A stretch of DNA of 64,000 bases from Deltaproteobacteria bacterium (GCA_040218735.1 JAVJQW010000008.1:224001-288000), one strand, 5' to 3'. Positions 43,141 to 60,300 are shown, counted from the first letter of the stretch. Numbers and translations: made by a program. Notes: a model not told the origin generated them from the sequence alone.

Positions 43141-44100
43141 ATGACCCGAGAAGCACCTCAGCTGAAGCGACACCACCACATCACGCTCTGCACCGGCGGC
43201 GCGCAGGAGGACTACGACTTCCACACCCAGGTCCTCGGTCTCAAGAGCGTCAAGAAGACCGCGCTCTACGACGGCGACGTGCCGATCTATCACCTCTACT
43301 ACGGCAACGACGTCGGTCAGGAGAGCACGCTCGTGACGAGCTTCCCGATGCGTCAGTCCGGTCGAAAGGCGCGCAAGGGATCGAATCAGATCACGAAGGT
43401 CTCGCTGTCGATCCCCACGTCGGGGTTGGAGTACTGGAAGAAGCGCCTCGTCGAGCATGGGTTCGACGTCAGGGCCGAGGAACGGTTCGGTGAGCAGATC
43501 CTCGCGTTCGCACACCCCTGCGGCATCGACTACGAGCTCGTCGCGATCGCCGACGACGACCGCAAGCCCTACGGCGGCTCCGACGTCCCGAGTGAGCTCG
43601 CCATCCGCGGCACCCACGGCATCACCGTGACGGTCCGCGAGCTCGAGCACTCCGAGGAGTTCATGGTCCAGGCGTGGACGGGCGAGAAGGTCGGCAGCGA
43701 CCGAAACTTCACGCGCTTCGCCGTGGGTGAGGGCGGCACCGGGACCCTCGTCGACTTTGAGGTGAAGCCCGACCTCGCGCCGGGCGGTTGGATGTACGGC
43801 GAAGGGATGGTCCACCACTGCGCCTTCCAGATCGACGACCTTGACGCGCAGGCCGACATGAAGTTCCGGTTGGAGGGGCTCGGCTTCACCGACGTCTCCG
43901 ACCGGAAGGACCGCGGCTACTTCGAGTCGGTCTACGTGCGGACACCCGGCGGCGCGCTCTTCGAGGCCGCGGTGTCGAAGCCGGAGGGCATGACGATCGA
44001 CGAGCCGTTCGAGAAGCTCGGGACGTCGTTTCAGGTCCCGCCGGTGTTCGCCGACCGCGCCGACGAGATCTTCGCGTCGCTCGAGAAGCTCGAATGGTGA
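43141..44100 (+). CDS. VOC-family ring-cleaving dioxygenase, PcpA/LinE-like
   Basis: 'HHITLCTG', 'YDGDVPIYHLYYG', 'GSNQ', 'EGMVHHCAF', 'SDRKDRGYFESVYVRTPGGALFEA'. Confidence 0.9.
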   Translation: MTREAPQLKRHHHITLCTGGAQEDYDFHTQVLGLKSVKKTALYDGDVPIYHLYYGNDVGQESTLVTSFPMRQSGRKARKGSNQITKVSLSIPTSGLEYWKKRLVEHGFDVRAEERFGEQILAFAHPCGIDYELVAIADDDRKPYGGSDVPSELAIRGTHGITVTVRELEHSEEFMVQAWTGEKVGSDRNFTRFAVGEGGTGTLVDFEVKPDLAPGGWMYGEGMVHHCAFQIDDLDAQADMKFRLEGLGFTDVSDRKDRGYFESVYVRTPGGALFEAAVSKPEGMTIDEPFEKLGTSFQVPPVFADRADEIFASLEKLEW

Positions 44101-44795
44101 GCTCCGCGATCGCGAACCCTCACCTCGTGGCGCCGTTGACGCACCTCGGCGCGCGAGAGCCCCGCGTGGTCGTGATCATGCTGCACGGCCGGACGCACGA
44201 CCCGGGTGTCCTCGCGCGCGACGTCGTGGACCACCTCGACGTGCCGGGCGTCGCGTACGTCGCCCCCACGGCGGCGGGGCGCGTCTGGTATCCGCGCTCG
44301 TTCCTCGCGCCGTTCGCAGAGAATGAGCCGGACCTCGGGCACGCGCTCGCGAGCGTCGATGTCATCTCCGATGCGTGGGTCGAGCGCGGCGTGCCTCGTG
44401 AGGCCCAAGTCATCTTGGGTTTCTCACAGGGCGCGTGTCTCGCCTGTGAGTACGTCTACCGTCGACGCGCGCAGCGCTTCGGCGCACTCATCGCATTCAC
44501 CGGTGGGTTGCTCGGACCGCGCGGGACGAACTGGGACGTGCCGGTCAGCGCTTGGGCGGGGATGCCGGTCGTGCTCGGCGGGAGCCGTGAGGACCCGTGG
44601 GTTCCGTACGACCGAATGCAGGAGACGGCCACCGTGATGCGCTCGGGCGGCGCCGTCGTCGAGTCCTACTACAAGGACGGCGACGAACACGCGGTCTACG
44701 CGCCGCAGCTCCGGGTGGCGCAGGAGATCTTGGCGTCGCTCGCCGGTCAGTCCTGGTCGTCGGCGGTGAGCTCTTCGAAGCGGTTGCCGGCGTAG
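44094..44795 (+). CDS. Alpha/beta hydrolase (phospholipase/carboxylesterase, MhqD-like)
   Basis: 'MLHGR', 'WYPRSFLAP', 'GFSQGACLA', 'DPWVP', 'EHAV'. Confidence 0.9.
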   Translation: MVSSAIANPHLVAPLTHLGAREPRVVVIMLHGRTHDPGVLARDVVDHLDVPGVAYVAPTAAGRVWYPRSFLAPFAENEPDLGHALASVDVISDAWVERGVPREAQVILGFSQGACLACEYVYRRRAQRFGALIAFTGGLLGPRGTNWDVPVSAWAGMPVVLGGSREDPWVPYDRMQETATVMRSGGAVVESYYKDGDEHAVYAPQLRVAQEILASLAGQSWSSAVSSSKRLPA

Positions 44796-46075
44796 CGCGC
44801 GGCGAAGACCCAGACGAGCACCAGCGCGATCGTGATGATCGAGAGGTAGCGCATGCTCGCGATGTCGTTCGACAGCAGCGTGGTGATCAGCAGACTGACG
44901 CCGACCGCGAGCGCCTTCGCGAAGCGCTGGACGAACATGTCGATGAAGGCCTTCGCCTTGTACTTCTCGTCGCGGGAGGTCGGGGTGTAGAGCGCCTCGC
45001 GCGCGGACTGGTTGATCGAGTAGTTGAGGCCGTTGTCCGAGACACTCAGTGCGCCGCCCACGTAGAGGATCGGCATCGCGAGGTACGCACCCGAGGCGAG
45101 CATGATCGCGACGGGCATGATGAGGAGCGCGACCGTGTGGCGGAAGTTCGAGAGGATGTAACTCGTCAGGAACAGCTGCACGAAGAGGCCGAGGCCGTTG
45201 GTGATCGCGTAGGTGGTGCCGAACGCCGAGCCCAGCTCGTCGGCGGCGAGGAGCTCCTCGAAGGTCACCGTGAACTGGAAGTCGAGCATCGTGGAGATGA
45301 TCTCGTAGAGGCCGACGATCGCGACGATCGCGAGGAGGTAGCGCGAGCGGAACACGATGCGCGCGCCGTCGATCGCGGGGTTGCCACCGTCCTCCTCCTT
45401 CGCCTCGTCCCCCGGACGATCCGGCGGTGGGTTCGCGTCGACGATGCGGCCCGCGAACACCGCGAGGATCGCGATGACCACCGTGATGCCGATCCCGATG
45501 CCCATCCACGCCCCGAAGGAGATCGACTTCACGCTCTGCGCGACGAACATCGATCCGAACGCGCCGCCCGACACACCACCCAGGATGATCGGGCCGTAGG
45601 TTCGCTTCGCGGCGGAGGGGCTGAAGCTGTCGTTGAGGAACGCGAAGAACGTCGCGACCATCAGTGTGTTGTAGAGGTCACCGAAGAGGTAGAACAGCCA
45701 CGCCTTCACCTCGGTGGGTTCCTCGCCGAGCACCAGGAAACCGCCGAAACACACCGCGCAGAACGCGCAGAACGCGAGGGTGAGTTGCTGCCGGCGGAGG
45801 CGCCTCGCGAGCGTGGAGAACACGATCACGGCGCCGAAGGCGACGACCATGTTCATGACCTTCGCGATGAGCTCCGCCTGCGAGCCCTCGAGCTGCCACC
45901 CGAAGAGATCGAGCTTCCCCTGGGACTTGTAGAAGCCGATGAACATCGCCTTCTTCAGCGGCTTCACGATCCAGAACGTGGTGATGACCGCGAAGAAGTA
46001 GCTGAACATCAGGAGCGTGAGCGGGAGCTCGTTCCGCTTGATGTTCATGAAGGCAGAGAGGGGGTTCTTGGCCAT
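44747..46075 (-). CDS. Npt1/Npt2 (TLC ATP/ADP translocase-like) MFS transporter
   Basis: About 12 TM; 'IVKPLKKAMF', 'AKRTYGPI', 'NYSINQSAREALYTPTSRDEKYKAKAFID'. Confidence 0.85.
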   Translation of the reverse strand: MAKNPLSAFMNIKRNELPLTLLMFSYFFAVITTFWIVKPLKKAMFIGFYKSQGKLDLFGWQLEGSQAELIAKVMNMVVAFGAVIVFSTLARRLRRQQLTLAFCAFCAVCFGGFLVLGEEPTEVKAWLFYLFGDLYNTLMVATFFAFLNDSFSPSAAKRTYGPIILGGVSGGAFGSMFVAQSVKSISFGAWMGIGIGITVVIAILAVFAGRIVDANPPPDRPGDEAKEEDGGNPAIDGARIVFRSRYLLAIVAIVGLYEIISTMLDFQFTVTFEELLAADELGSAFGTTYAITNGLGLFVQLFLTSYILSNFRHTVALLIMPVAIMLASGAYLAMPILYVGGALSVSDNGLNYSINQSAREALYTPTSRDEKYKAKAFIDMFVQRFAKALAVGVSLLITTLLSNDIASMRYLSIITIALVLVWVFAARYAGNRFEELTADDQD

Positions 46076-46084
46076 GAATCTAAC

Positions 46085-47215
46085 TCAGAAGTTCGCGGTG
46101 ACGCCGGTGTGGATGGCCACCTCGTTGGCGAAGTCGGAGAAATCCCAGTACTCGCCGGATAGCTTGATGCGGAGACCACGCTGCACGACGATGTTCACGC
46201 CGAGGGTCTCCCGGAGGATGGCGCTGGTACTTCGCAGCGCAGAGCTCGCGAGCACGTTGCCCTTGCGTCTCATCCCGTCGAGGCGCCCGAAGACTTCCAA
46301 GTAGTCCGTTATCGGGTACTCGGCTTCGATGTAGAAGCCATCCTTGGTAAAGAAGTTCTTCTTGGGATCGAACTCGTAGCGGAAGCGTTCGTCGGGGTTG
46401 CTCCCGACGGCGAACTCCGTCTTCCGGAAGAGATACTCACCGCGTATGACCAGCGCGTCGAAGCGTAAGTAGACGTCCGCGCCTAATATCAAATACTCCA
46501 GATCCGCCGCTGGGTCGTAGTGGCCGTACATGCCCGATAACCCGAATGTCCCGTTCACGTAGTCCGTGAAGTTCAAGGTGAGGGCGGCCCGACCTCCTAC
46601 GGCGGGCTCGGAGTTGTTGTCGACGTAGTACAGCGAGCCGGAGCGTGACTGCACGAAGTCGAAGTCGAAGGCGTCGTTGTTGCCCTTGAATCCGCTGACG
46701 ACGTAACCGGCGTAGTCGAGCTGGGCGTCGTCGCCGAACCACTGCGTCCCGTTCACCTCCAGCCCGTTGTCCACGTACGGGGCCGGCACGATGCTCATGT
46801 TCCACTCGTTGCGGCGGAGCATGCGGCCCATGTCGTAGGGGAGGGGTTTGGAGTTTGCGCGGTGGTTCGCCGGGTCGTGGCGAAGGAGGAAGTCACCGAA
46901 CGCAGGGTTCATGCGCCCGACGCGGAAGTTGAGTTGGTCCGCGACGCGCATGTCCACGTAGGCCATGTCCGTCTCGAAGCCGTGGCAGCCGTAGCAGATC
47001 TTCACGTTGGCGCTGAAGTTCTCCGTGAAGTCGACGGCGAGTTTCACCGCGAGCTCGGTGGTGAACCCGTCGAACGTGAAGTTGCGCCCGTTCACGGAGG
47101 TTGGCACGGCGAGGTAGTCGAGCTGCGCCGAGCCGGCGAAGTTGCGTTCGATCTCGTAGGCCGAGGCCGTCGCGGGGAGCAGAGTCACGAGCAGCAGAGG
47201 CAGGAGCTTCTTCAC
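46085..47215 (-). CDS. Outer-membrane beta-barrel (porin-like) with an internal CxxCH motif
   Basis: Signal peptide; amphipathic strands ('AYVDMRVADQLNFRVGR', 'GFYIEAEY'); C-terminal Phe; 'CYGCH' at 46982-46996. Confidence 0.8.
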   Translation of the reverse strand: MKKLLPLLLVTLLPATASAYEIERNFAGSAQLDYLAVPTSVNGRNFTFDGFTTELAVKLAVDFTENFSANVKICYGCHGFETDMAYVDMRVADQLNFRVGRMNPAFGDFLLRHDPANHRANSKPLPYDMGRMLRRNEWNMSIVPAPYVDNGLEVNGTQWFGDDAQLDYAGYVVSGFKGNNDAFDFDFVQSRSGSLYYVDNNSEPAVGGRAALTLNFTDYVNGTFGLSGMYGHYDPAADLEYLILGADVYLRFDALVIRGEYLFRKTEFAVGSNPDERFRYEFDPKKNFFTKDGFYIEAEYPITDYLEVFGRLDGMRRKGNVLASSALRSTSAILRETLGVNIVVQRGLRIKLSGEYWDFSDFANEVAIHTGVTANF

Positions 47216-47598
47216 GGCGCCGCCTCACTTCCGCTCGCCCCGCCGGCGCTGTCCGGCGCGGTGCGCTGGGATGGGTTCTCTTCCTCCAGGTAGTGTTTGA
47301 GGAAGACGAGGATCTTTTCGCCGTCGGCCTTCGAGATCCCGGAGCCGGCGTGGTGCCGCATCCGCTCGACGTAGGCGACCCAGTGCGAGAAGTCGTCGAT
47401 CTGCGCGTTGAGCGGTCGCGACAACGTGTGGCACCGCGAACACCGCGCGGCGAAGAGGCGGTAGGCCTCCTGCACGTTCGGTGGGTACTTCGCGACCCGC
47501 TCCTCCGGGAGTCCGCCCCGCAGGGTGCTTCGCCCGGTCACACACGCGACGAGCGCGAGGGCGGCGAGCGCGACGAGGAAGCGCTTGTCAGTTGTCAC
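47212..47598 (-). CDS. Monoheme c-type cytochrome lipoprotein
   Basis: Lipobox LVAC; 'LFAARCSRCH', 'WVAYVERM', 'ILVFL'. Confidence 0.85.
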   Translation of the reverse strand: MTTDKRFLVALAALALVACVTGRSTLRGGLPEERVAKYPPNVQEAYRLFAARCSRCHTLSRPLNAQIDDFSHWVAYVERMRHHAGSGISKADGEKILVFLKHYLEEENPSQRTAPDSAGGASGSEAAP

Positions 47599-48052
47599 GG
47601 GCGCCCTCCGCGATCCAGTCGGCGATGAGCCGGCGCTGCGCTTCGGTCAGGAACGGCGGGCCGTCGAACGGCATCTGCGACCCAAACGGCGGGCCGGGGT
47701 TGATCTTCTGCCACAGGATGCTGTCGCACGGCTGCCCTTCTACGATGACGCCCGAGAGGCTGTTGTTTCCGCCGGCGCGCAACCCGGCGAAGCTCGAGAG
47801 GTCGAGGCCGGTTTGTTCGAAGCCGATCGGGTTGGGGTCCGTGGGTTGGTGGCACGAGCAACCCACCGGGCCGGCCTCCTCCCGGAGGATCGGCTGGATG
47901 TCCTGCGAGAACGAGACGTCGGTGTCCGGATCGGAGTCGTCGTTCACGCAGCGGCCCGCGATCGCGGGGCCGACGGCGGGGTCGAACGTGTCGACGACGT
48001 CGAGGCAGCCCCCGACGCCGACGCACAACGCGAGTACGCCCCAGCGCTTCAC
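47588..48052 (-). CDS. Planctomycete-type cytochrome c lipoprotein with a contracted CxCH motif
   Basis: GTG start overlaps the upstream stop; lipobox VGGC; 'VSFSQDIQPIL...GCSCH...GLDLSS...SILWQKI...QMP...IADWIAEGA'. Confidence 0.8.
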   Translation of the reverse strand: MKRWGVLALCVGVGGCLDVVDTFDPAVGPAIAGRCVNDDSDPDTDVSFSQDIQPILREEAGPVGCSCHQPTDPNPIGFEQTGLDLSSFAGLRAGGNNSLSGVIVEGQPCDSILWQKINPGPPFGSQMPFDGPPFLTEAQRRLIADWIAEGARDN

Positions 48053-49032
48053 AGCGAACCCTTCGTTCGCTGGATTGGGCAGTTCACCAGCACGTCCTTC
48101 TGACGCGATATCGGCGGGACGACCTGCGAAGACACGACGTTCATCCCGACCGGGTCGTAGAACTGATCTTCCGCGGAGAGCCCGACCGCGGAGGAGGACG
48201 TGTCGATCGATAGGTAGTCTTCCTCGACCCGCACCACGGCGAGGTACCACAGCGGTGAGTAGCGCGGGCCGTCGAGACCGGACGCGAAGATGTTGTTCGA
48301 GTCGTTGAGGAGCTGGTCTCCCGTGATGTCGACGCCGCTCACGAACTCATAGAGCGGCGCACCTTCGTCGATTCGCTGGAGCACGTACACCGGGTACACC
48401 GGCATCTGGAGCTTCTCCGGCTCGAGACGTAGGAAATCGGTGAAGACCACCCAGTCGACGCGCTGATTTCGGTACCAAACCCAGCTCGGGTTCGCGTACT
48501 CATCTGGGTTCTGTCGGACCTGGATCTCCGTTTCTCGCAGGACCACGGGGCAGTTCGCCACCCGATCCGTCGCGGCGGGCTCCTGGAGGATTCCGGCGCG
48601 GATGCCCGCGTCGATCCCCTCGCGCGACCAGATGCGCTCGCCGTTGTACTTATCGGTCGTGTAGACCGTGAACACCCGCCACCACGGGGTGTAACCGGTG
48701 TCGCCGGGGATGACGTCGATGATCGTGCGGCCGATCTGCTGACCGTCCGGGCCGATGATTTGGTAGAGCGGCGCGATGAACGTGGCGTTGGGGCCGTCGA
48801 CGTTCCAGTACCAGATGCTCTCGCCGTCGGCCCAACCCTTCAGATACGCAACCTGCGACGCGAACTGCGCGATGTTGCTCGCGAGCGCCGGGTCGTCCTC
48901 GACGTGTTGGACCATTGCGGGGTCCACGTCGGGGTCCCCGAAGAAGGTCGACAGCGGGACATCGTCGTCCTCGGGGGGTTCGAGACACGCTCCGCACAGC
49001 AAGAGCGGTATCAACAGCCAGAGGGATCTCAT
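48049..49032 (-). CDS. Lipoprotein with two tandem homologous domains (DUF7482-like, tentative)
   Basis: Lipobox CGAC; paired motifs 'PGDTGYTPWW...VANCPV' and 'DGPRYSPLW...LVNCPI'. Confidence 0.75.
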   Translation of the reverse strand: MRSLWLLIPLLLCGACLEPPEDDDVPLSTFFGDPDVDPAMVQHVEDDPALASNIAQFASQVAYLKGWADGESIWYWNVDGPNATFIAPLYQIIGPDGQQIGRTIIDVIPGDTGYTPWWRVFTVYTTDKYNGERIWSREGIDAGIRAGILQEPAATDRVANCPVVLRETEIQVRQNPDEYANPSWVWYRNQRVDWVVFTDFLRLEPEKLQMPVYPVYVLQRIDEGAPLYEFVSGVDITGDQLLNDSNNIFASGLDGPRYSPLWYLAVVRVEEDYLSIDTSSSAVGLSAEDQFYDPVGMNVVSSQVVPPISRQKDVLVNCPIQRTKGSL

Positions 49033-49051: not shown

Positions 49052-51205
49052 TCACAGGTCTCGGGTCGAGTAGGCGAGGGAGAATTCGATCGGAACGGCG
49101 CCCGTGTCGGGGTGAGGCATCCGCGCGGAAGCGTAGGCGTCTTCGAGGCATGGGCCTACCCCCGGCAGTCCCCCGGCGGTCACTTTGCGCAATCGGCCCT
49201 GCACGGTGATCGTCGCCTTCACGTTTACGCGTCCTTTGCGGTGCACGCCGCCGCGCGCGAGGGCGCGGCGCATACAGGCGTGGGCTTCGGTCTTCTTGCG
49301 CTCGAGCGCGGTGCGGATCCGGTTCTTCGACAGGCCCCCCGCCATCTCGATCGCCGCCATCTCGACGTCGACGCGGAAGCTCGACCCCAGCTTGGGCGGT
49401 CCCGCCGGCGTCGTCGTCGCGACCTTCACGGGTTTGGGCGCAGGTTGCAGGACCTTGGGCGGCGCCGCCTCGAGGGTCTTGGGGGGCGCGGCTTCGGCCG
49501 GAGGGGGCGGGGGCGGCGGCGCGCGACGCACACGTCGTTTACGCCGTCGGCGCTTGGGGGGATCCTTCGCATCTTCACCGGCGGCGAGCCGGTTCGCGGT
49601 GGGCGCACCGCCGGCGCGGGTGTCGGCGGGGTTCGCGCCGAGGGCTCCGTCCGAGCCGTGGGCGTTGCCGTCCGTGCCGTCGGCGTCGTGGGCTTTGCCG
49701 TTCGTGCCGTGGGCGTTGCCGTCCGAGCCGTCGGCGTTGCCGCTCGCGGCGCCCTCGGTCGTGCCGTCTCCGTCGGCCCCAGCGCCGTTCGCATTGGCGG
49801 CGCCGTTCGCGCCGTCATCGCCGTTCACGGACGCTCCGTCCGCCGCGCTCGCTCCGTCTTGGCCCCGCCCGGCGTTCGCGGTGCCTCGGCTCTGCGCCGC
49901 CCCCACGCGCGCCTCGTCCGCGCTGCCCGGCGCGACCTCGACCACGGCCCGCCCGTCGCGCCCCAGCCACAGGAACACCGCCAGCGCGCCGACCGCCATG
50001 AGCGCGAGCGCCCCCGGTATGAGCGCGATGAGCGTCTTGCCGAGCCCCGGCGCCGGCGGCGCGGTCACGGGGACCGTCGCGGGCGGCTCCGTCGTCGCGG
50101 CCATCGTGCGCGCTTGGCTCACCGCGCGATCCACCCGCGTGGCGCCCCGATCCGCGGCGGGCATCGGCTTCGTCGCCGCGATGGTCTCCTCGAAGACCGT
50201 CGCGACCGCGGTCGAGCCGCGCTCCGCCGGGGCGCGCGACGGCGGCAGCTCGAGGTCACCGATCTCCGCGGTCCGCTTGATGAGCGGCACCGAAGCCATC
50301 CCGGTCGTCGACGGCATGTCCAGGCCCGCCTCGCGCAGCAGCTCGCGCAGGGCGTCGCGCCCCTCGCGCGCGTCGAAGCGCTCCGCCGGGTCCTTCGCGA
50401 TCGCCTGCATCACGATCTGCTCGAGGCGCGGGTGCGGCGTCACCCCGAAGCTCTCCATCTTCGGCGGCGGCTCGGAGATGTGCTTCATGAGCACGCCGGT
50501 CGGCGACTTCGCCCGGAACGGCGTCCGCCCCGTGAGCATCTTGTACATGATGACGCCGCACGAATAGATGTCGCTCTTGGCGTCGAGTGGCTCCCCGCGC
50601 GCCTGCTCCGGCGACATGTACGCGGGCGTCCCGAACACCGCGCCCTGCCGGGTGAGCGGCCCGATCGAGCCGTCGTTCGCGTCGAGGATCTTCGCGAGCC
50701 CGAAGTCACAGACCTTCACGAAGTCCTGCACCGGTCCGTCCTCGCTGATCTTCTCGATCAGCATGACGTTCCCCGGCTTCATGTCGCGGTGGATGATGCC
50801 CCCCGCGTGCGCGGCCGCGAGCGCCGAGAAGACCTGCGACATGATCCAACACAGCCGCGTCGTCTCGATCTTCATCTGCTGGCGCAGCACGGCCTGAAGG
50901 TCCTGCCCCTCCAGGAACTCCATCGCGATGTAGAGCAGCCCCTCGTCCTCGCCGAAGTCGAGGATCTGGACGCTGTTCGGGTGGTCGAGCCGGCTCGCGG
51001 CCCGGGCCTCCGCCTTGAACCGCCGCGCGTGGATCTCGGGCGCCCCCTCCATCCGGAGGAGCACCTTGATCGCGACCGCCTTCGCCAGCCCGGTGTGCTG
51101 GGCGCGGTACACCTTCCCCATCGCGCCGCTCCCCAGCAGCTCCAGGATCTCGAGCTTGCCGCCGATGACGCGCCCGAGCAGGGGATCGATCGAAACTGGG
51201 TCCAT
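49052..51205 (-). CDS. Membrane Ser/Thr protein kinase (Pkn2 type) with a C-terminal AgmX/TonB-C-like domain
   Basis: 'LGSGAMGKVY', 'VAIK', 'HRDMKPGN', 'DFG', 'GTPAYMSPEQ'; TM helix; G/D/N repeat linker. Confidence 0.95.
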   Translation of the reverse strand: MDPVSIDPLLGRVIGGKLEILELLGSGAMGKVYRAQHTGLAKAVAIKVLLRMEGAPEIHARRFKAEARAASRLDHPNSVQILDFGEDEGLLYIAMEFLEGQDLQAVLRQQMKIETTRLCWIMSQVFSALAAAHAGGIIHRDMKPGNVMLIEKISEDGPVQDFVKVCDFGLAKILDANDGSIGPLTRQGAVFGTPAYMSPEQARGEPLDAKSDIYSCGVIMYKMLTGRTPFRAKSPTGVLMKHISEPPPKMESFGVTPHPRLEQIVMQAIAKDPAERFDAREGRDALRELLREAGLDMPSTTGMASVPLIKRTAEIGDLELPPSRAPAERGSTAVATVFEETIAATKPMPAADRGATRVDRAVSQARTMAATTEPPATVPVTAPPAPGLGKTLIALIPGALALMAVGALAVFLWLGRDGRAVVEVAPGSADEARVGAAQSRGTANAGRGQDGASAADGASVNGDDGANGAANANGAGADGDGTTEGAASGNADGSDGNAHGTNGKAHDADGTDGNAHGSDGALGANPADTRAGGAPTANRLAAGEDAKDPPKRRRRKRRVRRAPPPPPPPAEAAPPKTLEAAPPKVLQPAPKPVKVATTTPAGPPKLGSSFRVDVEMAAIEMAGGLSKNRIRTALERKKTEAHACMRRALARGGVHRKGRVNVKATITVQGRLRKVTAGGLPGVGPCLEDAYASARMPHPDTGAVPIEFSLAYSTRDL
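49650..49745 (-). repeat. Imperfect tandem repeat in the kinase linker (DGNAHG-like units)
   Basis: Repeated 'ccgtgggcgttgccgtccg' and variants. Confidence 0.6.
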
Positions 51206-51326
51206 CCAGGTCCTCGCCGCCAGCTTACCTACAAGCCACGACCCTGGCGACAAACCAAGCCGCGAGCTCGGACCCCTCGCGTGCTCTGGTAAAAAAGCCG
51301 GCCCCATGTGAAGGATTCCGGGTTCA

Positions 51327-54300
51327 ATGGCTGAAACGCCGGTCGATCCGGGCAGTTCGCCCGAGCCGACGTCGCTCGGCTTCTCGCTGGGGTTCATCGA
51401 AGGATCCGCGCTCGTCTCCCTGACCGATCGCCGGCTCGCCGAAGGCCTCGTCGTCCGCGCGCTCGACCTGCAGCTCGCCGAGGTCGAGTTCCCGCTCAAC
51501 CTCGAGGGCGGCGCCGAATCGTTCCAGCGCCGCTCGACGGCCCTCCGCAGCCTCGTCCTCGACGTCCACGTCGAGCTGATCGGCCGCGCCCTCACCGAAG
51601 CGCTCGAAGACGGCCCCCTCGAAAGCGTACACGTACGCACCGAGGGCGATCGCCTCACCGTCGAGGTCGGCCTCGCCGACGCCACGTTCGTCGGCACCGT
51701 CCTGCTCTCCCACGACGCCGACCGCACCGTGCGCCTTCACCTCCTCGACCCGATCGTCGTCGGGCCTTCGAAGATCGACGCGTGGTCGATACCCCCGCTG
51801 CTCCTCGACGCCGCTCGTCGCGCGCTGGGCGCCGAGAGTGAGCGCATCGCCGAGTCCCTCCGCCTGGCCGGCGCCACCACCTTTGCGATCGACCCCGCCG
51901 ACGCGCTCCTGTGGGGCCTCCTCCCGCCGCACGGCTGGAAGGTCCCGCACCACGACGAGGCGCCCGTTCACCGCGTCTCGATCACCCCGACGGGCTTCGT
52001 CCGCGTCGCGCTCGGTGCGCCCTCGAAACACGCCGACACCGACGCGGGGACCGCCGCCGACGAGCAAGATGTCTTGCGCGCGCTCGCCCGCGACGACATC
52101 GAGAAGTCGCTCGGCCTCGCGCGCGAGAAGCTCGACCGCGGCGACGCCGTCGGCGCGTTCACCGAGATGCGCAATCGCCTCGACGCATCCGGCGGTCCCG
52201 ACGCCCTCGTCGCCCGTCTTCTCGCGCTCGGCGCGACCGTCGAACGCCTCTTCGATGAGACGAACGACCTCGCCGACGATCGCCTCGAGAAGGACCCCGC
52301 GGACGTCCGCGCGCTCCTCGCCAAGGGGGCGATCGCGTCGGCCGAAGTGCGCGCCGACGAGGCCGCCGACGCCTTCGAGCGCGCGGGCCGCAAGCTCAAG
52401 GCCGAGGCCCACCGCCGCGCCGCCGGGCTCGCGTTCCGCGCCGCCGCCGCGGCCGTCGCGCGCCTACGGAAGAAGGGCTCCGCGAAGCGTCGGGTGCGGT
52501 TGCTCGAGGACACCATCGCGCTGCGCCCCGACGACACCGTCGCGCTGTCGGCGCTCGTCTCGGCGCTCCCCGCGCAAGGTCGCGCGCCCGCCGCCGTCCG
52601 CGCGGCGCGCCGCCTCGCGAACCTCGCGAACGATATCGACACTCGCGTGCTCGCCCACGTGTCGGCGGGTGAGCTGCTGCGCGATCCGATCGGCGATCTC
52701 CCGCAGGCCCAACGTGAGTTCGAGCGTGCGCTGCGGATCCGCGAGGACGATCCGGCGGCGCTCGAAGGCCTCGCCCGCGCGGTGATGGACGCGGGCGAGC
52801 CGCGTCGCGCCGCGGTGATCTTCGAGCAGCTGATCGAACGCGCCGAGGCGGACGGTCAGCGGGACCGCGCGGCGCGGATGTCGCTCGCGCTCGGTGATCT
52901 CTGGCGCCCGCTCGACGCCGAGGCGGCGATGCTCCGCTTCCAGCGCGCGCGCGAGCTCGATCGCACGAGTGTCCCGGCGCTCGCGCGCATCGCGGAGGTC
53001 GCGATCGAACACGGCGGCAACGAGGCCGCGATGGAGGCCGTCGAGTCCGCGCTCCCGATGCTCGACGAGGGACGCATCGGCGGGGACCGTGCGGCGGCGC
53101 TGTCGTTGCGGCTGACCGCGGGGCGCCTCTACGAGGAGCACGCGGACCTGATCGAGGAGGCGATCGTCCAGTACGACGCCGCGCTCGCGCTCGCGCCGAA
53201 CACCACCGAGGCGCTCGTCGCGCTCTCGCGTCTGTACGAGCGCCAGGGCAACACGCAGCACCGCGCGGAGGTGATCGATCGGCACGCGAAGCTCCTGGTC
53301 GGCGCCGGGGATCTCGAAGGCGCGGCCAAGGCGTGGGTCGAAGAGGCGCGGATTCACAAGGACGACCCGAAGCGGGTCGAGCGGATCCGCAGCGCGATCG
53401 TCGAGGGGCTCGCGAAGGAGCGCTCGCACCGCGGGCTGCTCGACGCGCTCGTCGAGATCGCTTCGCTCGGGGACGACGCGTCCGCGCAGATCGACGCGAT
53501 CGATCGCCGCCTGCTGCTCGATGATCCGCCGCAGGTGCGCGCGCCGCTGCTCACGCGCCTCGGTGCTGCGTTCGAGTCCGCGGCCCGCGAGGTCGAGGCG
53601 GCGCGCGCCTACGAAGAGGCGGTCGCGTGTGACGAGCGGAGCAAGGAAGCGATCCACGCGTTGTCGCGGATCTACCGTTCGCGTGACGACCACGAGCGCC
53701 TGGCGGGGGTGCTCGCGCTCGCCGGGCACCTCGCGGTCTCGGACGAGGAGCGCGGCGATCTGCTCACCGAGCGCGCGAGGCTCCTGAGGACGCTCGGCCG
53801 CGACGACGAAGCGTACGCTTCGATCCAGGACGCGCTGAAGGCGGCGCCGGAGTCCTCGGCCGCGCTCGCGGTCGCGACGAAGCTCGCGATCAAGCTCAAC
53901 GATCACGAAGCCGCGAAGCGTCACGCGCTGCACCGGCTCGCGCAGTCGGAGTCGCTGACCGCGGACAAGAAGCTGCCGATCTACGTCGACCTCGCGCGGG
54001 TGGCGGAGGCGACCGAGCGTCGCGACGAGCTGATCGACGCGCTCGAGCACGCGCGGGATCTCGCGGACCCGGAGAGTGAGACCGGTCGTCAGATCGCGGC
54101 GCGCCTCGCGCGGGAGCTGTACGGCGCGGAGCGTCTCGAGGAGCTCGCGGAGCTTCAGAGACGACGCGGTCGCGTGGCGACGGCGGCGGCGACGGAGCGC
54201 GCGGAGCGCTTCATCGAGGCCGCGCGGTTGTCGGCGCGTCTAGCGCAGCACGAGCAGCTCGTCGAGGACGTCGAGGAGGCGCTGTCGATCCTCGGGCGCA

Positions 54301-57300
54301 AACGACAGGAGGTCGAGCTGAAGCTGAAGGCGCTCGACGTCCTGGAGTCCCACGCTCGTCAGCGCGAGGACCTCGCGTTGCTCGCGGACGTCCTCGGGCG
54401 CCGCGCGTCGTTCGTCGGGCAGGCCGAGGAGAAGGAGCGCCTCTGGCTGGAGCAGGCCGACGTCTTCGATCGCATCGAGCGTTACGACGACGCGGTGAAG
54501 GCGCTGCAGGGGGCGTCGGATGCGCTGCCGTCTTCGTTCAAGCTCGCGGAGCGCTACGGGCGCGCGGCGCAGCGCGCGATGAAGAGCGGCGAGGCCGCGG
54601 AGGCGTTCGGGCGTGCGGCGCAGATCGCTCGCGCGCGCGGCGAGGTCGAGCTCGGGTTGGAGATGCACGGGCGCGCCGCCGAGACGTACGCGCTCATGCG
54701 CGATCGCGAGGCCGCCGCGGAGCACGATCGCGCTCTTCTGGAGCTGTCCGGTCCGTCGACCCGCTCGCCGTACCTCGCGGGGGCGATGGAGCGCCTGGAG
54801 CGGTTCGGTCGCGACCACGACGATCCGGAGCTCCTCGCCGACATCCTCGGTCGCCGCGCGAACGAAGCGCGCCCCGAAGACGCCGCGCGGATGCTCCTCG
54901 AGAAGTCCGAGGTGCACCTCGCCGGGGAAGGTGGGGAGCGCGACGGTGTCGATGCGCTGCGGCGCGCGCGTAACCTCGCGCCGCCGGGCACGCAGGTCGC
55001 CGAGGCGATCGACGATCGGCTCGTCGAGATCCTGGAGCAACTCGGCTTGCACGCCGAGCAGGCGGCGGTGCTCGTGGAGCGCGCGGACCGAGCGCCCGAG
55101 GGGGCGTCGAAGGCGGAGCTCTACTTCCGCGCCGCGGAGCTGTACGCGGAGCGGCTCCGAGATCGCGGGATGGCGTTGTCGCGCGCGCAGGCTGCGGTGC
55201 GCGCGGACCCGAGCCACGACGAAGCGCGGGCGCTGCGCATTCAACTCCTGCGCGCCGGAGGGCGTCGCGACGCGCTCGCGGAGGCGTTGGCGGAGGAGGC
55301 CGAGCTGTGCCGCGACGCGCGTCGTGCGGCAGAGCTTTGGTTGGAGGCGGCGCAGATCATCACGCCCGTCGACAACCATCATGCGCTCGATCCGCGCGAG
55401 GTCGAGCAGAGCCTTCAGCTCGTGCGTCGGGCCGCGACGGCGTCGCCGTCGTCGGTGGCGGCGTTCGAGGCCGGTGCGGTCTACACGCGGACGCTGGAGC
55501 GCGCGGACGAAGAGGTCGTGCTGCTCGGGCACGTCGTCGAGCGCGCGACGGAGGCGTCGAAGCGGATCGCGGCGCGCATTCGTCGCGTGGATCTGTTCGC
55601 TGGTCCGCTGCGACAGCCGGCCGACGCGCAGACGGAGCTGATGCTGATCCTCCCGGAGCTCGTCGGGTTGCAGAGCGCGGAGTGTGCGGCGATCGAAGCC
55701 GAGCTCCCCGCCGAGTCCGCGCGGCGCCTCGAGGTCGCGGAGCACGGCGGTGTGCGCATGGCGCTGCTGCAACTCGGGTTGACGCTCACGGAGCTGCAGC
55801 AGGACTGGACTGCGCACGTTCAGGTGTTGATGTGGCTCGTCGACGTCTCCGCCGACGCGGAGGTTCGTGCCGAGCTGCGCACGCGCGCGGGCGGTGTTTT
55901 GGAGTGGAAGCTCGGTGACGGCGAGGGCGCGGAGCGCGAGTACCTCGCGGCGCTCGCGTTGCTCCCCGGCAACGACCGCCCGAAGCAAGCGCTCGAGAAC
56001 TTCTACATGGCGGTGGATCGCTTCGCGGACATCGCCGACAACCTCGGGACCGAGACGCTCGTCGAAGTATGGGGGCGCCTCGGGGACGACGAGCCCCCCA
56101 ACCGCCTGATCGCCGCGGCCGAAGCGCTGTGGCCCAAGCTCCCGGAGGGGAGCGACGAACGCGCCGAGGTGCAGCTCCGGCTCGCCGACTTGTACGTGCA
56201 GCGCGATCGCGAGAGCGAGAGCGCCGACGCCGTTCACATCCTCGAGCAGGTCGAGCAGCGCGCGCCGCGGCAGTTCCAGGACGCGGCGCTCGAACGGTTG
56301 CGCGTGTTCTTCCTCGAGAAGGAGCGCGCGGACCTCTACTGCGACGTGCTCCGCCGACAGGCCGAGCGCCTCGAAGACGACCACAAACGTGCGCTCGCCC
56401 TCGCGGAGCTCGGCGAGGCGTTGGAGTGGAAGCTCGGGGACGGGCTCGCCGCGGAGAACGAGTACCGCGCGGCGCTCGCGGCGGACGCGGAGTGTGTCGA
56501 GGCGAAGCGCCGCCTCGCGCAGCTGCTCTCCTCGCAGGATCGGTTCGAGGAGATCGGTCGTGAGCTCGGCGTCGAGACGCTGGAGGGGGTGCTCGTCGAG
56601 CTCCTCGGTCAGGGCAGCCGCGACCGCGAGCGCGCGATCGCCGCGGCGGACGCGCTCGCGCCGATCCTCCCCCCGGAGCGGGTGGGCGGGGTCTGGCTGC
56701 GGGTCGCGGATTCGTTCGAGGTGGACGAGCCGACCGACGCCTCCGCGAAGGCGGTGCGCGTCGCGTTGCAGCGCGCGTCGGAGGCCGACGGTCCCAACCA
56801 GAAGCAGGCGCTCACCCGACTCACCGCGTGGCTCGCGCAGGCGAACGATCGCGGGGAGCTCGCGAACGTGCTGCGTCGCCGCGTCGAGATGGAGAAGGAC
56901 CCGGAGCTTCGGGCGTCGCTCCAGCTGGAGCTCGGGCGGCTCGTGATGTCGATGCTCTCCGAGTCCGAGGGCCCGGGGCGCGAGGCGATCGAAGAAGAGG
57001 CCGAGCGCGAGCTGCGCTCCGCACTCGAGACGGACGCGCGCAACGAAGAAGCGCGCGCGCTGCTGGAGCGCCTCTACCTCGAACGTGCGCGGTACCTGGA
57101 GATCGGCCGGGTGCTCGGACGCGAAGTCCTCGAGCGGCTGCGGGTCGAGGGTGAGACGTCGGGTGACGTCGCGCAGGCGCGCGGCGCGGTGGCGGCGCTC
57201 GCGGAGATGTCGGAGGGGTCCGAGCGGGCGGGGTTGCTCGTCGAGCTGGTCGGCTACGCAGAGGACGCGGAGGGGCAGCCCGGTTGGCCGCGGACGCCGG

Positions 57301-60300
57301 AGGATCTCTATCGCGCGGCGCTCGTCGCGGACTCTGGGCACGGCCCGGCGCGCGAGGGCCTGCGGGCGTTGCTCGAATCCGAGGGCCGGTACCGCGAGAT
57401 TGCGGACGCGCTCGATGTCGCGGCGCTCGTCGACACGCTGGAGGGGCTGCGTCGCTCGGATGACGATCGGCACCAGGTGCTGCCGGCCTCCCTCGCGTTG
57501 GCGAATGCGCTCGAGAACACCGGCGCGCCGCGCTCTGCGCAGGCGACGCTGTGGACGGAGATCGCGTCGCTGCACATCGAGGACGAGGACTCCGAGGCCG
57601 CCGAGCGTGCGCTGCGCGAAGCGTTGGCGCTGCAGTCGGACCACGAGGATGCGCGCGAGCTGATGCGGGAGCTGTTCGTCGCGGAGCGTCGGCTGGAGGA
57701 GCTCGCGGAGATCGACGAAGCGCTCGTCGCAACGACGGCGCAGCGCGCCTCCGAGACCGGGGACGCCGCGCTGCAGATCGACGCGCTGGACGTGCTGGCG
57801 TCCCGGAAGTCCGGGGAGCGTCGCGCGGACACGTTGGTGTGGATCGCGGCGTTGGAGCGCGAGCGCGGCTTCGCGGACCGCGCGGAGGCGCGGCTGATCG
57901 CGGCCATCGAAGCGCACGCACCGCACGCCGTCGCGCGCGCCGAGCTGGAGGGGCACCTGTGGCGCGAGCGGAGGTTCGCGGACGTGGTGGAGCGCCTCGG
58001 TGCGACGGCGCTGCTCGCGCGGGTGACGCGGGAGGTGGACGACGATCCCGATGGCGTCGTGGCCGCGGCGAACGCGACGCGCGATCTCCTGGAGCCCGCG
58101 GATCGCGCGCGGCTCGACGAGCTGATCGCGCCGGTGCAGGGGCTCGAAGCGCTCGAGCGCGCGAAGGCCATTTGGGACGAGCTCGAAGACGCTGCGGGTC
58201 GCTTCCGCGTGCGCCAGGCCATCGTGGATCTGCGACGCAAGGAGGGCGACGCTGCGCAGCTGCTCCTCGCGTTGGAGGGCGCCCACGCGTACGCGACGAA
58301 CGCCGAAGACCGCGCGCGAATCGCGGTCGAGCGTGCGGGGATCATGACCGCCGCCAACGATCGCGATCGGGCGCGTGCGCTCGTGGAGCCGCTCGTCGAC
58401 GACCTCACGCTGCCGCGCAAGGAACGTCAGGACGCGGCGCGGCTGTTGGTCGAGGATCTGCTCCCCGAGGTCGCCGCGGCGCCGTCCGAGGACGTGCTCG
58501 AGCTACGCGCGCGATCGCTGGAGGTGCTCACGGAGCTGCCGTCGGCGGGGCCGCCACCGGGCGACGTCGAGAAGTGGTTCGTGCAGCTGTCGAAGACCCG
58601 CGAAGCGCTCGACTACGACGCGGGCTCCGTGGCGCAGCCGCTCGAGTCTGCGCTGCGCGTTCGCAGCCAGGAGGACGACGGGATGGAGATCCGTCGTCGC
58701 CTCGTCGAGTTGTACGAAGAGGTCGGCGACTGGGCGCAGGCCGAGCCGCACGCGTCGGTGATCGCGGAGGCGGACGACCGCCCCGAACAGTGGGTGCAGC
58801 TGTCGGAGCTGCGCGCGTGGCTCGACGATCCGCAGGGCGCTCAGTCCGCGCTCGATCGCGCGCTGGAGCTCGACCCCGCTTCGGAGTCCGCGCACGAGTC
58901 GATGATCCGCCTCGCCGAGCAGACCGGCGAAGCCACCTCGGTGATCACGCGGCTGGAGGCGTGGGCGGAGGTCGACGCGAAGGGTGAGGCTTCGGATCGT
59001 GCGAAGCGTCTGCTGCGCGCGGCGGAGCTCGCGATCGAAGCCGGCGACGCCGAGCGCGGTGCGCTCCTCGCCGAGCGCGCGGTGACGTTGGTTCCGCGCA
59101 AGGATCCCTCGGTCGAACCCATCGCGTTGGAGGCGTGTGCGATCCTCGCGCCGTCCGGGCTCGCCGACGCCCGCATCGCGATCCTCACGCGCGTGGTGCA
59201 GGAGGCGGGGGCGGACGTTTCGTCGTCTTCGCGCATCGCGCTCGCCGACCTGTTGGTGGAGCAGGACCGGATCGACGAGGCGCGCACGGTCGTCGAGCAG
59301 GGCGTGCACCGCGAAGCCGCCGAGGACGATCCGCTCCTGGATCGCCTCGTCGAGATGACCCGATCCCTCACGCCGGACGCCGGTGCGCGCAGGATGCTCG
59401 CGACCGCGGAGCGCCTCGGTGCGGGCCCCGCGGCGCGTCGCCTGCGCATGGCGGGCGCGGAGCTCGCGGAGTCGGCGGGGGAGCGTGAGACGGCGCGTGC
59501 GGCGCTGACGAACATCGTCAGCGAGCTGGGCGGCGAGGCGACGAAGGCGCGCGAAGCGCTCGTTCGAATCACCCGCGATCTCGACGATGCACCAGCGCTG
59601 GTTGCGGCGCTCGAAGAGGCCGCGCTGGACGCCTCGACGTCCGTCGAGCGCGCAGAGAAGTGGGCGGAGGCGGCGGCGGTGGCGGACGAGCGCCTCGACG
59701 ACCCGGAGCGCGCCGAGCTGCTCCTGTCGCGCGCGATCGCCTCGCAGCCGAACGACGTCGCGCTCCGGCAGCGCCGAATCGATCTGCTACAGCGGCGCGG
59801 TCGGTGGTTCGATCTGCTGGAGGCGTACGCGTCGGAGGCGGAGCGTGCGGAGGGGCCGGCGAAGATCGAGTGGCTCGAACGCCGCGCGACGTTGGCGTCC
59901 GAGCGGCTCGGCGACGAAGCCACGCTCGCGGCGTCGCTCGAGCAGGCGTTCGACCTCGGCGGCGACGTTCAGCACGCGATCCGCGCGATGCAGGCGTACC
60001 GGAACACGTACGAATTCGACGCGCTGCTGTCGCTCGCGGAGCGCGTGCCGGTGAAGGCGCCCGAGGTTCGTACCGTCGTCGATCTGTTGATCGCGGACGC
60101 GATGGAGTCGCTGGGGCGCATCGAAGAAGCGCGCGCGATGTTGGAGCGCCTCGCGGCGGAGCAGTTCGACGTCCCGCTCGTTCAGCACCGGTGGTGCACG
60201 TTCCTTCACCGTCACCGCGACCTCGAGCTCCTCGCGCGTGCGCTGGAGACGATCGCCATCAACGTCGAGCCGCGCGAAGGGGTGCGGTGGCAGCTCGCGG

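Follow-up and report, generated by a model that had tools for sequence, protein, structure and literature searches.

A putative porin-cytochrome module of the outer membrane encoded by a gene cluster conserved in myxobacteria

Introduction

In the window, i.e. the whole 64,000-nucleotide stretch of Deltaproteobacteria DNA that was analysed, a predicted outer-membrane barrel with a haem c attachment motif in its own sequence is encoded between genes for small lipoproteins and a gene for a TLC/MFS-type carrier. This raises the question of what such a barrel serves for. The first-pass annotation had left two answers standing: a minimal chain for passing electrons across the outer membrane, or redox-linked uptake, with the barrel feeding the carrier with nucleotides, phosphorylated solutes or metals. 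Here, we address this question through the genes themselves, their relatives and structural models.

Results

Layout of the gene cluster

ORF listing and translation of the window placed genes A to E as five co-oriented ORFs on the minus strand (Table 1). Their junctions were as originally described, with GTGA overlaps between A and B and between C and D, an 11-nt overlap between B and C (GTGACAACTGA), and a 9-nt gap between D and E (gttagattc). The longest ORF for B spans 47588-48250; we placed the true start at the GTG at 48052, giving VKRWGVLALCVGVGGC. Lipoboxes were found in A, B and C and, upon alignment, also in their relatives. Translation likewise recovered the cysteine motifs that had been noticed before, namely CYGCH in D, CSRCH in C and CSCH in B. 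A near-identical strain with the same D-E layout was present in another sample (18.6-kb contig, run X2; 40 differences in 4401 bases).

Table 1. Positions of genes and motifs of the locus within the window
Feature	Coordinates	Strand	Description
Ser/Thr protein kinase	49052..51727	-	AgmX/PglI-type C-terminal tail (match below cut-off); conserved neighbour
A	48049..49032	-	DUF7482 lipoprotein, 327 aa; accessory member, occurs with B
B	47588..48052	-	PSCyt1-like lipoprotein, 154 aa from GTG 48052
CSCH in B	47849..47860	-	one residue between the cysteines
C	47212..47598	-	monohaem cytochrome c lipoprotein, 128 aa; predicted barrel plug
CSRCH in C	47428..47442	-	single CxxCH
D	46085..47215	-	outer-membrane 16-strand beta-barrel, 376 aa, internal CxxCH; module core
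CYGCH, D residues 74-78	46982..46996	-	putative site of covalent haem c binding, at the hairpin tip between strands 3 and 4
PLPYDMGRM, D residues 124-132	46820..46846	-	within L3; contains Met129, candidate for the distal ligand of the haem
E	44747..46075	-	TLC/MFS-type carrier, 442 aa; outside the conserved module

The barrel and its haem motif

As noticed in the first-pass annotation, D starts with a signal peptide (MKKLLPLLLVTLLPATASA), carries CYGCH at residues 74-78 and ends on a C-terminal Phe. The AF2 model of D, which was of moderate quality (pLDDT 68.3), comprises 16 strands, and its best Foldseek matches were porins of the OprO/OprP/OmpF type (TMq 0.52-0.63), including 4rjw (TMq 0.59), 2o4v (TMq 0.63) and 4rjx. 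Similarity to the Pfam family Porin_O_P (PF07396) was limited to one stretch, residues 79-109, which scored 15.6 bits and thus stayed below the gathering cut-off of 20.9; the Porin_O_P annotation is found on a minority of the members of D's Atlas cluster. A PDB sequence search with D gave no matches. The D family comprises 2009 homologues, none of which bears a functional name, and Pfam, NCBIfam and the source labels offer nothing more specific than 'hypothetical protein', 'porin' or 'cytochrome c'. Conceivably, D could be an ordinary anion- or phosphate-type porin, as its fold and the weak Porin_O_P similarity would suggest. Instead of carrying the predicted haem, the cysteines of a CxxC at the tip of a hairpin could form a disulfide, or the CxxCH could be a non-haem metal site, in which case the cytochrome genes would adjoin D for another reason.

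In the model, strands 1 and 2 of D cover residues 23-36 and 50-62, and the CYGCH motif is located between strand 3 (residues 67-77) and strand 4 (residues 79-92), at their outer end. Inspection of this site in barrel homologues, as suggested in the first-pass annotation, showed the CxxCH in 14 of 14 relatives covering it, at identities down to 34%, in all 80 genome loci and in 83 of the 87 representatives (50% identity) that cover these columns, where all but one of the four exceptions seem to have garbled reading frames; kinship among the related genomes causes these counts, and those on synteny given below, to overstate the support. This conservation is far above chance. Among 89 representatives that have a residue directly after the second Cys, 86 have a His there. 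Furthermore, the long conserved loop L3 (residues 102-149; pLDDT below 50) carries the motif PL.Y.MG, the Met129 of which was present in 97 of the 103 representatives covering it. Two representatives genuinely lack the haem motif, P0246 at the aligned position and P0268 throughout its sequence, and Met129 is missing in both. The two motifs are conserved together and lost together. The joint behaviour with Met129, the nearly invariant His and the conservation of the full C..CH argue against a mere disulfide or metal site and suggest that D may bind a haem covalently.

Synteny and natural fusions

All 14 D loci of relatives contained C, and 13 of them contained B. At 78 of the 80 genome loci, one or more of the adjoining B and C genes carried a CxxCH or Cx3CH motif, and the two exceptions had less than 600 nt of upstream sequence. 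D is almost always accompanied by C and/or B, and often by A (DUF7482), and this gene set is conserved in myxobacteria. In addition, 16 of 49 long D representatives carry two to three CxxCH motifs. Specifically, P0164 and P0165 consist of a C-like domain followed by the barrel, and the N-terminal domain of P0165 is 40% identical to C (E 2e-19). In P0244, P0262 and P0270, the barrel is preceded by two cytochrome domains, the first of which is a weak PSCyt1-like match in P0244 and P0262. C-like, or B-like plus C-like, domains are thus fused to the barrel in other lineages, including records labelled Planctomycetes, and the extra cytochrome domain comes on top of the in-barrel motif. Such recurrent fusions, the c-type cytochrome genes adjoining D at 78 of 80 loci and the sub-threshold Pfam score further argue against an ordinary porin, which we regard as unlikely.

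The partner lipoproteins

C53, C56, H57 and M80 of C were invariant in 15 sequences. The profile scores of C were below the respective cut-offs, both in Pfam (Cytochrome-c551, 22.2 vs 27.1; Cytochrome_CBB3, 15.8 vs 27) and for SorB of NCBIfam (24.1 vs 93). B reached 22.4 bits against PSCyt1 (PF07635; cut-off 22), and its alignment showed that a third Cys (PC[DE]S) is conserved, as is an MPF. The spacing of the B motif varies among orthologues between CxCH, CxxCH, Cx3CH and Cx4CH, with CxxCH at 28 of 80 loci. We know of no haem attachment through CxCH. The earlier description of two cytochrome lipoproteins has to be qualified, as B carries a CxCH instead of a CxxCH. As a bolder side reading, the conserved CxCH of B may be a new motif for haem c attachment.

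A matched DUF7482 (PF24298) with 29 bits, over the cut-off of 27.5, and the match covered only profile positions 49-128 of 257. Many of its 97 homologues have a precomputed PF24298 label, and distant ones carry a T9SS sorting domain. The model of A was confident (pLDDT 86.5), and it matched no fold in the PDB. A had been described as a duplicated-domain lipoprotein. When its halves were compared by BLASTP, no similarity was detected (best E = 30), so that this description rests only on a short recurring motif, G-Y-[ST]-P-x-W, and was not confirmed.

A model of the complex of D and C

Complex modelling, which had been proposed to place the motif and the partners, gave a score of 0.86 for D with C and two haems, while the best of three controls scored 0.00. 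Of the solved complexes, 116 of 157 attained this mark, as did 2 of 215 mismatched pairs, a calibration that is only rough here since our own alignments and riding ligands were used. The runs had at least 87% of the contacts in common, with partner pLDDT values of at least 86. On D, C touched every second residue at the periplasmic ends of nearly all strands, i.e. the lining of the lumen, as well as residues 105-117 of L3. C is thus predicted to sit inside the D barrel, which it would have entered from the periplasmic side.

The carrier E

E matched TLC of Pfam with 58.7 bits (cut-off 21), in partial stretches only, and also matched MFS_1. Its 62.7 bits against the NTP/NDP exchange transporter family TIGR00769 of NCBIfam fell far short of the cut-off (387.2). 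E is only distantly related to TLC/MFS proteins, and its similarity does not imply that it is an ATP/ADP translocase. A route in which D feeds E would fit the resemblance of D to anion-selective porins and the position of E on the same strand, 9 nt after D, which is repeated in the near-identical strain. However, E adjoined D at none of the 14 loci of relatives and at none of the 80 genome loci, and E orthologues in G005 (56% identity) and G002 (49% identity) are located on contigs other than that of D. Conversely, none of A, B, C or D was seen near E orthologues at 80 metagenome loci, 38 of which had at least 1.2 kb of upstream sequence. E is usually accompanied by housekeeping genes, by a metallophosphoesterase gene and by that of a TLC-HEAT paralogue. 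E is therefore an unrelated, lineage-specific neighbour and not a part of the module, with which it is probably co-transcribed in this lineage only. Of the five-gene order, B and C beside D, and often A, recur elsewhere, and E does not; the coupling to an Npt/TLC carrier is not supported. Since the pairing is absent from both sides, the redox-linked uptake route is without comparative support. It is largely refuted by synteny, and we consider it highly improbable.

Redox genes and kinases in the neighbourhood

Among seven extra D loci that were examined, only three had OmcA/MtrC neighbours. Decahaem cytochromes of the OmcA/MtrC family adjoin D in G036 (281.7 bits; cut-off 209.3) and G133 (304 bits), a partial match below the cut-off was found in G197 (162.5 bits), and none was seen in G071, G165 and G247. 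None of the 80 genome loci contained a multihaem cytochrome, i.e. an ORF with three or more CxxCH motifs. The genome encodes cytochrome c assembly genes (three PF01578 matches), and the window's cluster showed no quinol oxidoreductase of the inner membrane.

The kinase next to A has a Pkinase domain (E 4e-49), and its AgmX/PglI-type tail matched NF033768 with 25.1 bits, below the cut-off of 40. A Ser/Thr kinase was located within 3.5 kb of D at 38 of 50 loci with enough flanking sequence, often on both sides. Kinases with FGE-sulfatase domains and FHA/sigma-54 activators adjoin D-C at other loci. The module could, conceivably, be mainly a sensor, where the haem barrel and the cytochrome would signal to the adjacent membrane kinase the redox state outside the cell, or a ligand such as O2, NO or metal, rather than carry a respiratory electron flux, and one or two haems are indeed few for a high-flux conduit. 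Ser/Thr kinases are, however, very numerous in the Myxococcota, which makes their adjacency to D weaker evidence. Moreover, in family f14, D is located by OmcA/MtrC-type cytochromes with no Ser/Thr kinase seen at the D loci, the regulators there being SiaA-like phosphatases with HAMP-type matches. Likewise, the kinase link was not seen among the examined fused forms labelled Planctomycetes. A primarily sensory role is thus rather improbable.

Discussion

Of the two answers initially proposed for this locus, a minimal electron-transfer chain was favoured by motif conservation, synteny, natural fusions, the complex model and the OmcA/MtrC neighbours, and redox-linked uptake was not. On balance, we think it probable that A to D encode a compact outer-membrane module of the porin-cytochrome type, in which D is itself a c-type cytochrome and C a plug, together making up a minimal electron wire. 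In D, the haem would be bound covalently at the CYGCH, where strands 3 and 4 have their outer end, and Met129 of L3 would supply the distal ligand. C would insert as a plug into the periplasmic half of the D lumen, as predicted by the complex model, such that the haems of D and C, bridged by L3, could constitute a minimal wire spanning the outer membrane. B may act as a periplasmic relay or as an alternative partner, A as an accessory component that is possibly surface-side, and the adjacent Ser/Thr kinase might regulate or read the module. Candidate directions and substrates are Fe(II) oxidation as in Cyc2, the reduction of extracellular acceptors, or another small redox substrate. Assembly of such a barrel would require the haem on its outer hairpin to pass through the outer membrane, for which we know of no precedent.

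A more far-reaching reading, which we put forward tentatively, is that D represents a new class of outer-membrane c-type cytochrome. Here, the haem would be attached covalently to the barrel wall at the extracellular end of strands 3 and 4 and be Met-ligated by the constriction loop, with the lumen plugged on the periplasmic side by a lipoprotein cytochrome encoded separately. With two to three haems, this would be the shortest known wire through the outer membrane, widespread in Myxococcota and fused in Planctomycetota. If so, the haem would be located in the barrel protein itself, and one would have to ask how a hairpin loaded with haem gets built into the outer membrane. It would also mean extracellular electron wiring in two phyla not known for it, including the Myxococcota, which are mostly viewed as aerobic heterotrophs and predators. 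The D family has thousands of unnamed members, and if these bear haem, current marker sets have missed a type of conduit.

How does D compare with known systems? OprO and OprP are its best structural matches, with weak similarity also in Pfam, yet D remains below the Porin_O_P cut-off. To our knowledge, OprO and OprP have neither a CxxCH nor cytochrome partners.

Cyc2 is similar in overall design. Passages of PMC8406198 and PMC5566968 describe Cyc2, Cyc2PV-1 and Cyt572 as having few haems and a 16-strand barrel like OprO/OprP, which the cytochrome is thought to plug. D shares with Cyc2, as portrayed there (PMC8406198), the signal peptide, one CxxCH and the 16-strand OprO/OprP-like porin, and fused relatives such as P0165 have the same order of an N-terminal cytochrome domain and a barrel. 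Cupredoxin genes near D at 5 of 80 loci, reminiscent of rusticyanin in the rus operon, are in line with D being a divergent Cyc2/Cyt572-type fused cytochrome-porin that serves as an outer-membrane Fe(II) oxidase. In contrast to the N-terminal domain of Cyc2, however, the CYGCH of D follows strands 1 and 2 and lies in the in-barrel hairpin 3/4, accompanied by the Met-bearing L3. D lacks both Cyc2 signatures given in PMC8406198, namely PXFAR[Q/K][T/Y], located 5 aa upstream of CXXCH, and PXL, located 4 aa downstream of it. Its motif is flanked as TENFSANVKI-CYGCH-GFETDMAY, the upstream sequence, DFTENFSANVKI, is similar in all aligned relatives, and GFETDMAYVD follows downstream, the nearest PL being at residues 124-125. 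Furthermore, the plug cytochrome of D is encoded by a separate lipoprotein gene, and fused relatives carry two to three haem motifs, including the in-barrel one, where Cyc2 has one. No D homologue is labelled Cyc2 in any source, and no Cyc2-type family was found for D in Pfam or NCBIfam. A divergent Cyc2 thus appears improbable, and with both signature motifs missing we read D as a new variant of porin-cytochrome electron conduits.

With the larger conduits MtrAB, MtoAB, PioAB and Pcc (OmbB-OmaB-OmcB), the locus shares a cytochrome inside an outer-membrane barrel, for D in the model only, as well as the clustering and translational coupling of A to D and, in G036 and G133, the OmcA/MtrC-family decahaem lipoproteins next to D. 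The barrels of these conduits are larger and haem-free, with 26 strands in MtrB according to the account in PMC8406198, and their inserted cytochromes carry 8-14 haems in the Mtr/Pcc-type systems covered by PMC4245776. D, in contrast, has 16 strands and a CxxCH of its own, and its partner C is a monohaem protein.

Gene layout and family assignments

The G+C content of the window is about 67%, and the five minus-strand genes at issue, which we designate A to E, follow one another closely (table). Translation reproduced the motifs that the first-pass annotation had read here, namely CYGCH in the barrel protein D (residues 74-78), CSRCH in the cytochrome c lipoprotein C and CSCH in the PSCyt1-like lipoprotein B. 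The junctions were likewise confirmed: A and B overlap in GTGA, B and C by 11 nt, C and D again in GTGA, and D and the carrier gene E are separated by a 9-nt gap. The start of B was assigned from the alignment of its relatives and from the junction sequence. A duplicated domain had also been attributed to the lipoprotein A; this was not borne out, as BLASTP of one half against the other gave no similarity.

Coordinates of the genes considered, in the numbering of the window
Gene	Coordinates	Strand	Product or remark
A	48049-49032	minus	ORF, 327 aa; DUF7482 lipoprotein
B	ORF 47588-48250, start placed at GTG 48052	minus	154-aa lipoprotein, PSCyt1-like
C	47212-47598	minus	ORF, 128 aa; cytochrome c lipoprotein
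D	46085-47215	minus	ORF, 376 aa; barrel
E	44747-46075	minus	ORF, 442 aa; TLC/MFS carrier
Ser/Thr kinase gene	49052-51727	minus	upstream of A
Abhydrolase_2 gene	44094-44795	plus	phospholipase/carboxylesterase
Long ORF	51327-63827	plus	single ORF, 4166 aa

At the level of families, A matched DUF7482 (29 bits, cut-off 27.5) and B matched PSCyt1 (22.4 bits, cut-off 22), and all cytochrome c matches of C were below threshold. The sole match of D was to Porin_O_P and was also below threshold (15.6 bits, cut-off 20.9), and the profile of D gave no match at E ≤ 10 among the PDB sequences. E matched TLC and MFS_1, and reached 62.7 bits with the NTP/NDP exchanger model, the cut-off of which is 387.2. 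At their 3′ ends, E and the convergent Abhydrolase_2 gene overlap by 49 nt. The long plus-strand ORF, with many TPR-like repeats, begins in divergent orientation to the kinase gene.

Contigs from the RNA libraries X20 and X21 cover parts of all five genes, including the B/C junction, which is not evidence of transcription; nor do the uncovered parts of the genes carry any information. The five-gene layout was found again in a near-identical strain, on an 18.6-kb contig from sequencing run X2 with 40 differences in 4401 bases; this strain is of the same lineage and therefore gives the five-gene layout no independent support.

Conservation of the haem motif in the barrel

The CxxCH motif of D proved to be conserved. 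At E ≤ 0.001, we found 2009 homologues of D; among the 120 listed, none has a functional name ('hypothetical protein' is used where the source names them), and those that are labelled come from Myxococcota or 'Deltaproteobacteria' metagenome-assembled genomes. Matches at the same threshold were present in 20 of 61 related genomes, comprising 14 of the 19 of the same family, the window's own genome, one clear homologue outside the family (G036, 35% identity) and four weak matches. C..CH was found in all 14 aligned sequences (the window and 13 relatives covering the site), and CxxCH in all 80 loci of a set of species-representative genomes whose titles include Myxococcota, Polyangiales, Kofleriaceae, Haliangium, Myxococcaceae and Archangiaceae. 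Furthermore, a profile search of 1.84 billion representatives clustered at 50% identity gave 752 matches at E ≤ 0.001. Among the best 150 of these, the motif columns were covered in 87, and C..CH is present in 83 of the 87. Of the four exceptions, P0131, P0186 and P0257 resemble wrong-frame translations, and in P0246 the motif is truly missing.

D has a second motif, [KR]PL.Y.MG.M, within its long loop of residues 102-149, where Met129 is retained in 97 of 103 representatives. At the position of Met129, Ser is found both in P0246, whose aligned site has no CxxCH, and in P0268, which is devoid of CxxCH throughout. This joint retention and joint loss of CxxCH and Met129 is the pattern expected of a His/Met-ligated haem c site. 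Since the window's genome contains three Cytochrom_C_asm matches, attachment of haem c is possible there; ResB was matched in this genome below the cut-off only. In one related genome, G004, the D gene is split between two frames (L033 / L065, G004:C88; pieces 6034-6345 and 6339-7112 in L033), because this genome has either a frameshift or an assembly error there.

Genes A to D are syntenic and gene E is a passenger

The first-pass annotation had proposed a candidate five-gene envelope system in which the porin may be coupled to a TLC/Npt carrier. The order of A to D was indeed conserved, but E did not belong to it. When the window proteins were compared by tblastn with the loci of 14 relatives, C was recovered from all 14, B from 13, A from 10 and E from none. 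The 80 genome loci were subjected to profile searches, and 50 of them extend at least 3 kb upstream and at least 1.5 kb downstream of D. These 50 contained C in 38 cases, B in 35, A in 29, a kinase gene in 38 and E in none, and E was equally absent from the remaining 30 loci. The recurrent layouts were kinase-A-B-C-D, A-B-D, C-D, D-C and C-D-A-B.

True orthologues of E (56% identity in G005, 49% in G002) are located on contigs other than those carrying D. None of A, B, C or D was present in 80 metagenome loci with E orthologues, in 38 of which the sequence upstream of E is 1.2 kb or longer. Elsewhere, E has a TLC-HEAT paralogue, a metallophosphoesterase gene and housekeeping genes for neighbours. 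We therefore rejected a coupling of the porin to the carrier: synteny is against it (0/14, 0/80 and 0/80 loci), the orthologues being on separate contigs, and gene E is a passenger. In the metagenome loci L156 and L183, the E orthologue is followed by a TLC/MFS paralogue of about 920-945 aa fused to HEAT repeats, and most related genomes have long paralogues of a similar kind, their open frames being about 950-1000 aa in length.

Cysteine spacing in lipoprotein B

The two cysteines in the haem-type motif of B are spaced differently from orthologue to orthologue (positions 47849-47860 of the window; loci L047-L126 and L034). The form CxCH, which to our knowledge is not a haem c motif, was found in 24 loci, all 24 of which have a C gene. 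CxxCH was found in 28 loci, and in the 19 of these that are without a C gene B directly abuts D. Cx3CH was found in one locus and Cx4CH in G036. It follows from the motif counts of B and C that D is adjoined by at least one partner with CxxCH or Cx3CH in 78 of the 80 loci, the two exceptions having less than 600 nt upstream of D. As the related genomes are not independent, we regard this as a pattern rather than a statistic. A third cysteine of B (PC[DE]S) is likewise conserved.

Models of the barrel and of its complex with C

The AlphaFold2 model of D, based on a 14-row alignment (pLDDT 68.3, pTM 0.70), has 16 strands. In this model CYGCH falls where strand 3 (67-77) ends and strand 4 (79-92) begins, and the loop of residues 102-149 lies between strands 5 and 6, at the position of the porin loop L3. 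The best PDB matches of the model were BpsOmp38, OprO, OprP and OmpF-type porins (TMq 0.52-0.63). Porins usually have both termini in the periplasm and, if this topology is applied to the model, the CxxCH of D would be at the extracellular end.

A second model combined D (residues 20-376) with residues 20-110 of C and two haems. This complex scored 0.86 and the best of three controls 0.00. Of 157 solved complexes 116 attain the former mark, and of 215 mismatched pairs 2 do; these counts calibrate the result only roughly because our job used its own alignments and ligands. The runs agreed in at least 87% of contacts, with a partner pLDDT of at least 86. The contacting residues of D (21-27, 60-68, 90-96, 155-169, 209-223, 249-256, 300-307, 343-349 and 375-376) are alternate ones in nearly all strands, near the periplasmic ends, and residues 105-117 of L3 are in contact as well. 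We read the model as having C inside the periplasmic half of the barrel lumen, with L3 between C and the CxxCH end.

Fused forms

Two or three CxxCH motifs were present in 16 of the 49 representatives of at least 340 aa. P0164 and P0165 consist of a C-like cytochrome domain followed by a barrel with its own CxxCH, and C shares 40% identity with the N-terminal domain of P0165 (E 2e-19). In P0244, P0262 and P0270, two N-terminal cytochrome c domains precede the barrel, and the first domain of P0244 and P0262 has a weak PSCyt1-like match, below the Pfam cut-off. The NCBI label of P0164 is 'cytochrome c [Planctomycetes bacterium]', and that of two relatives without a fusion is 'hypothetical protein [Planctomycetes bacterium]'. 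Among 301 sampled Myxococcota genomes there was no fused B-C-D protein; 53 matched P0262, in the barrel part only. The fusions put C-like and B-like domains N-terminal of the barrel, which is the periplasmic side.

Lipoprotein A and the adjacent kinase

The model of A was confident (pLDDT 86.5). No usable Atlas match was found for A, and Foldseek of its model against the PDB returned nothing at E ≤ 0.001 (TM about 0.1). In a wide VIA-align search, 0 of 48161 chains reached Z ≥ 2, where the typical best Z of the tool is 7-8; this emptiness may be technical, and because it is so odd we do not claim a new fold for A. Conserved features of the protein are a D-x-D-G-D-like loop (GVD.DGD) and, close to the C-terminus, a single free cysteine (NCPIQ); neither His nor Met is conserved at any position. 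A T9SS sorting domain occurs in distant relatives of A.

The membrane Ser/Thr kinase gene starts 20 nt upstream of A and encodes a C-terminal tail that is weakly AgmX/PglI-like. In most relatives a kinase gene lies beside the module, sometimes on both flanks. At loci of the D-C type, the kinase includes an FGE-sulfatase domain and has an FHA/sigma-54 activator next to it.

Redox genes near the barrel in other genomes

The gene order in G036 is an OmcA/MtrC-family decahaem lipoprotein (10 CxxCH; 281.7 bits, cut-off 209.3), an EB_dh-like lipoprotein, a B-like lipoprotein, D and C. In G133, an OmcA/MtrC-family protein (304 bits) adjoins D, and NrfA- and NrfH-like genes lie nearby. In G197 the protein that follows D has five CxxCH and matches OmcA/MtrC in part, below the cut-off (162.5 bits), and a five-CxxCH lipoprotein precedes D-C in G281. 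The gene calls of G071, G165 and G247 gave no multihaem neighbour of D, and no ORF with at least three CxxCH was present in the 80 genome loci, five of which have cupredoxin-like ORFs near D and one an EB_dh protein.

At three loci of another Myxococcota family, f14 (L034 in G036, L213 in G133 and L216 in G197), the D homologue adjoins OmcA/MtrC-family multihaem lipoproteins; the parts of these loci that were read contained neither MtrA nor MtrB.

Overall reading and comparison with known systems

Together, the haem-motif barrel, its small cytochrome partners and the DUF7482 lipoprotein form a real and conserved module. It is apparently undescribed, the literature searched containing no description of a barrel with an internal CxxCH, of DUF7482 or of a Myxococcota porin-cytochrome of this family. 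As the most likely mechanism we favour, with moderate confidence, an electron path through the outer membrane in which electrons would cross via two to three haems, one of them on D, so that the barrel itself would be one of the cytochromes.

The Mtr and Pcc systems have larger, haem-free barrels and multihaem partners (PMC8406198; PMC4245776). Keffer et al. (2021) define Cyc2 by a signal peptide, a short N-terminal cytochrome domain that holds one CXXCH, with PXFAR[Q/K][T/Y] 5 aa upstream and PXL 4 aa downstream of CXXCH, and a 16-stranded OprO/OprP-like porin (PMC8406198); the cytochrome domain is described as a plug by He et al. (2017; PMC5566968). Measured against this definition, D differs from Cyc2 in the position of CXXCH and in lacking both signature motifs, and we rejected its membership of the Cyc2 family on these grounds, whereas the type of barrel and the idea of a plug are common to the two.
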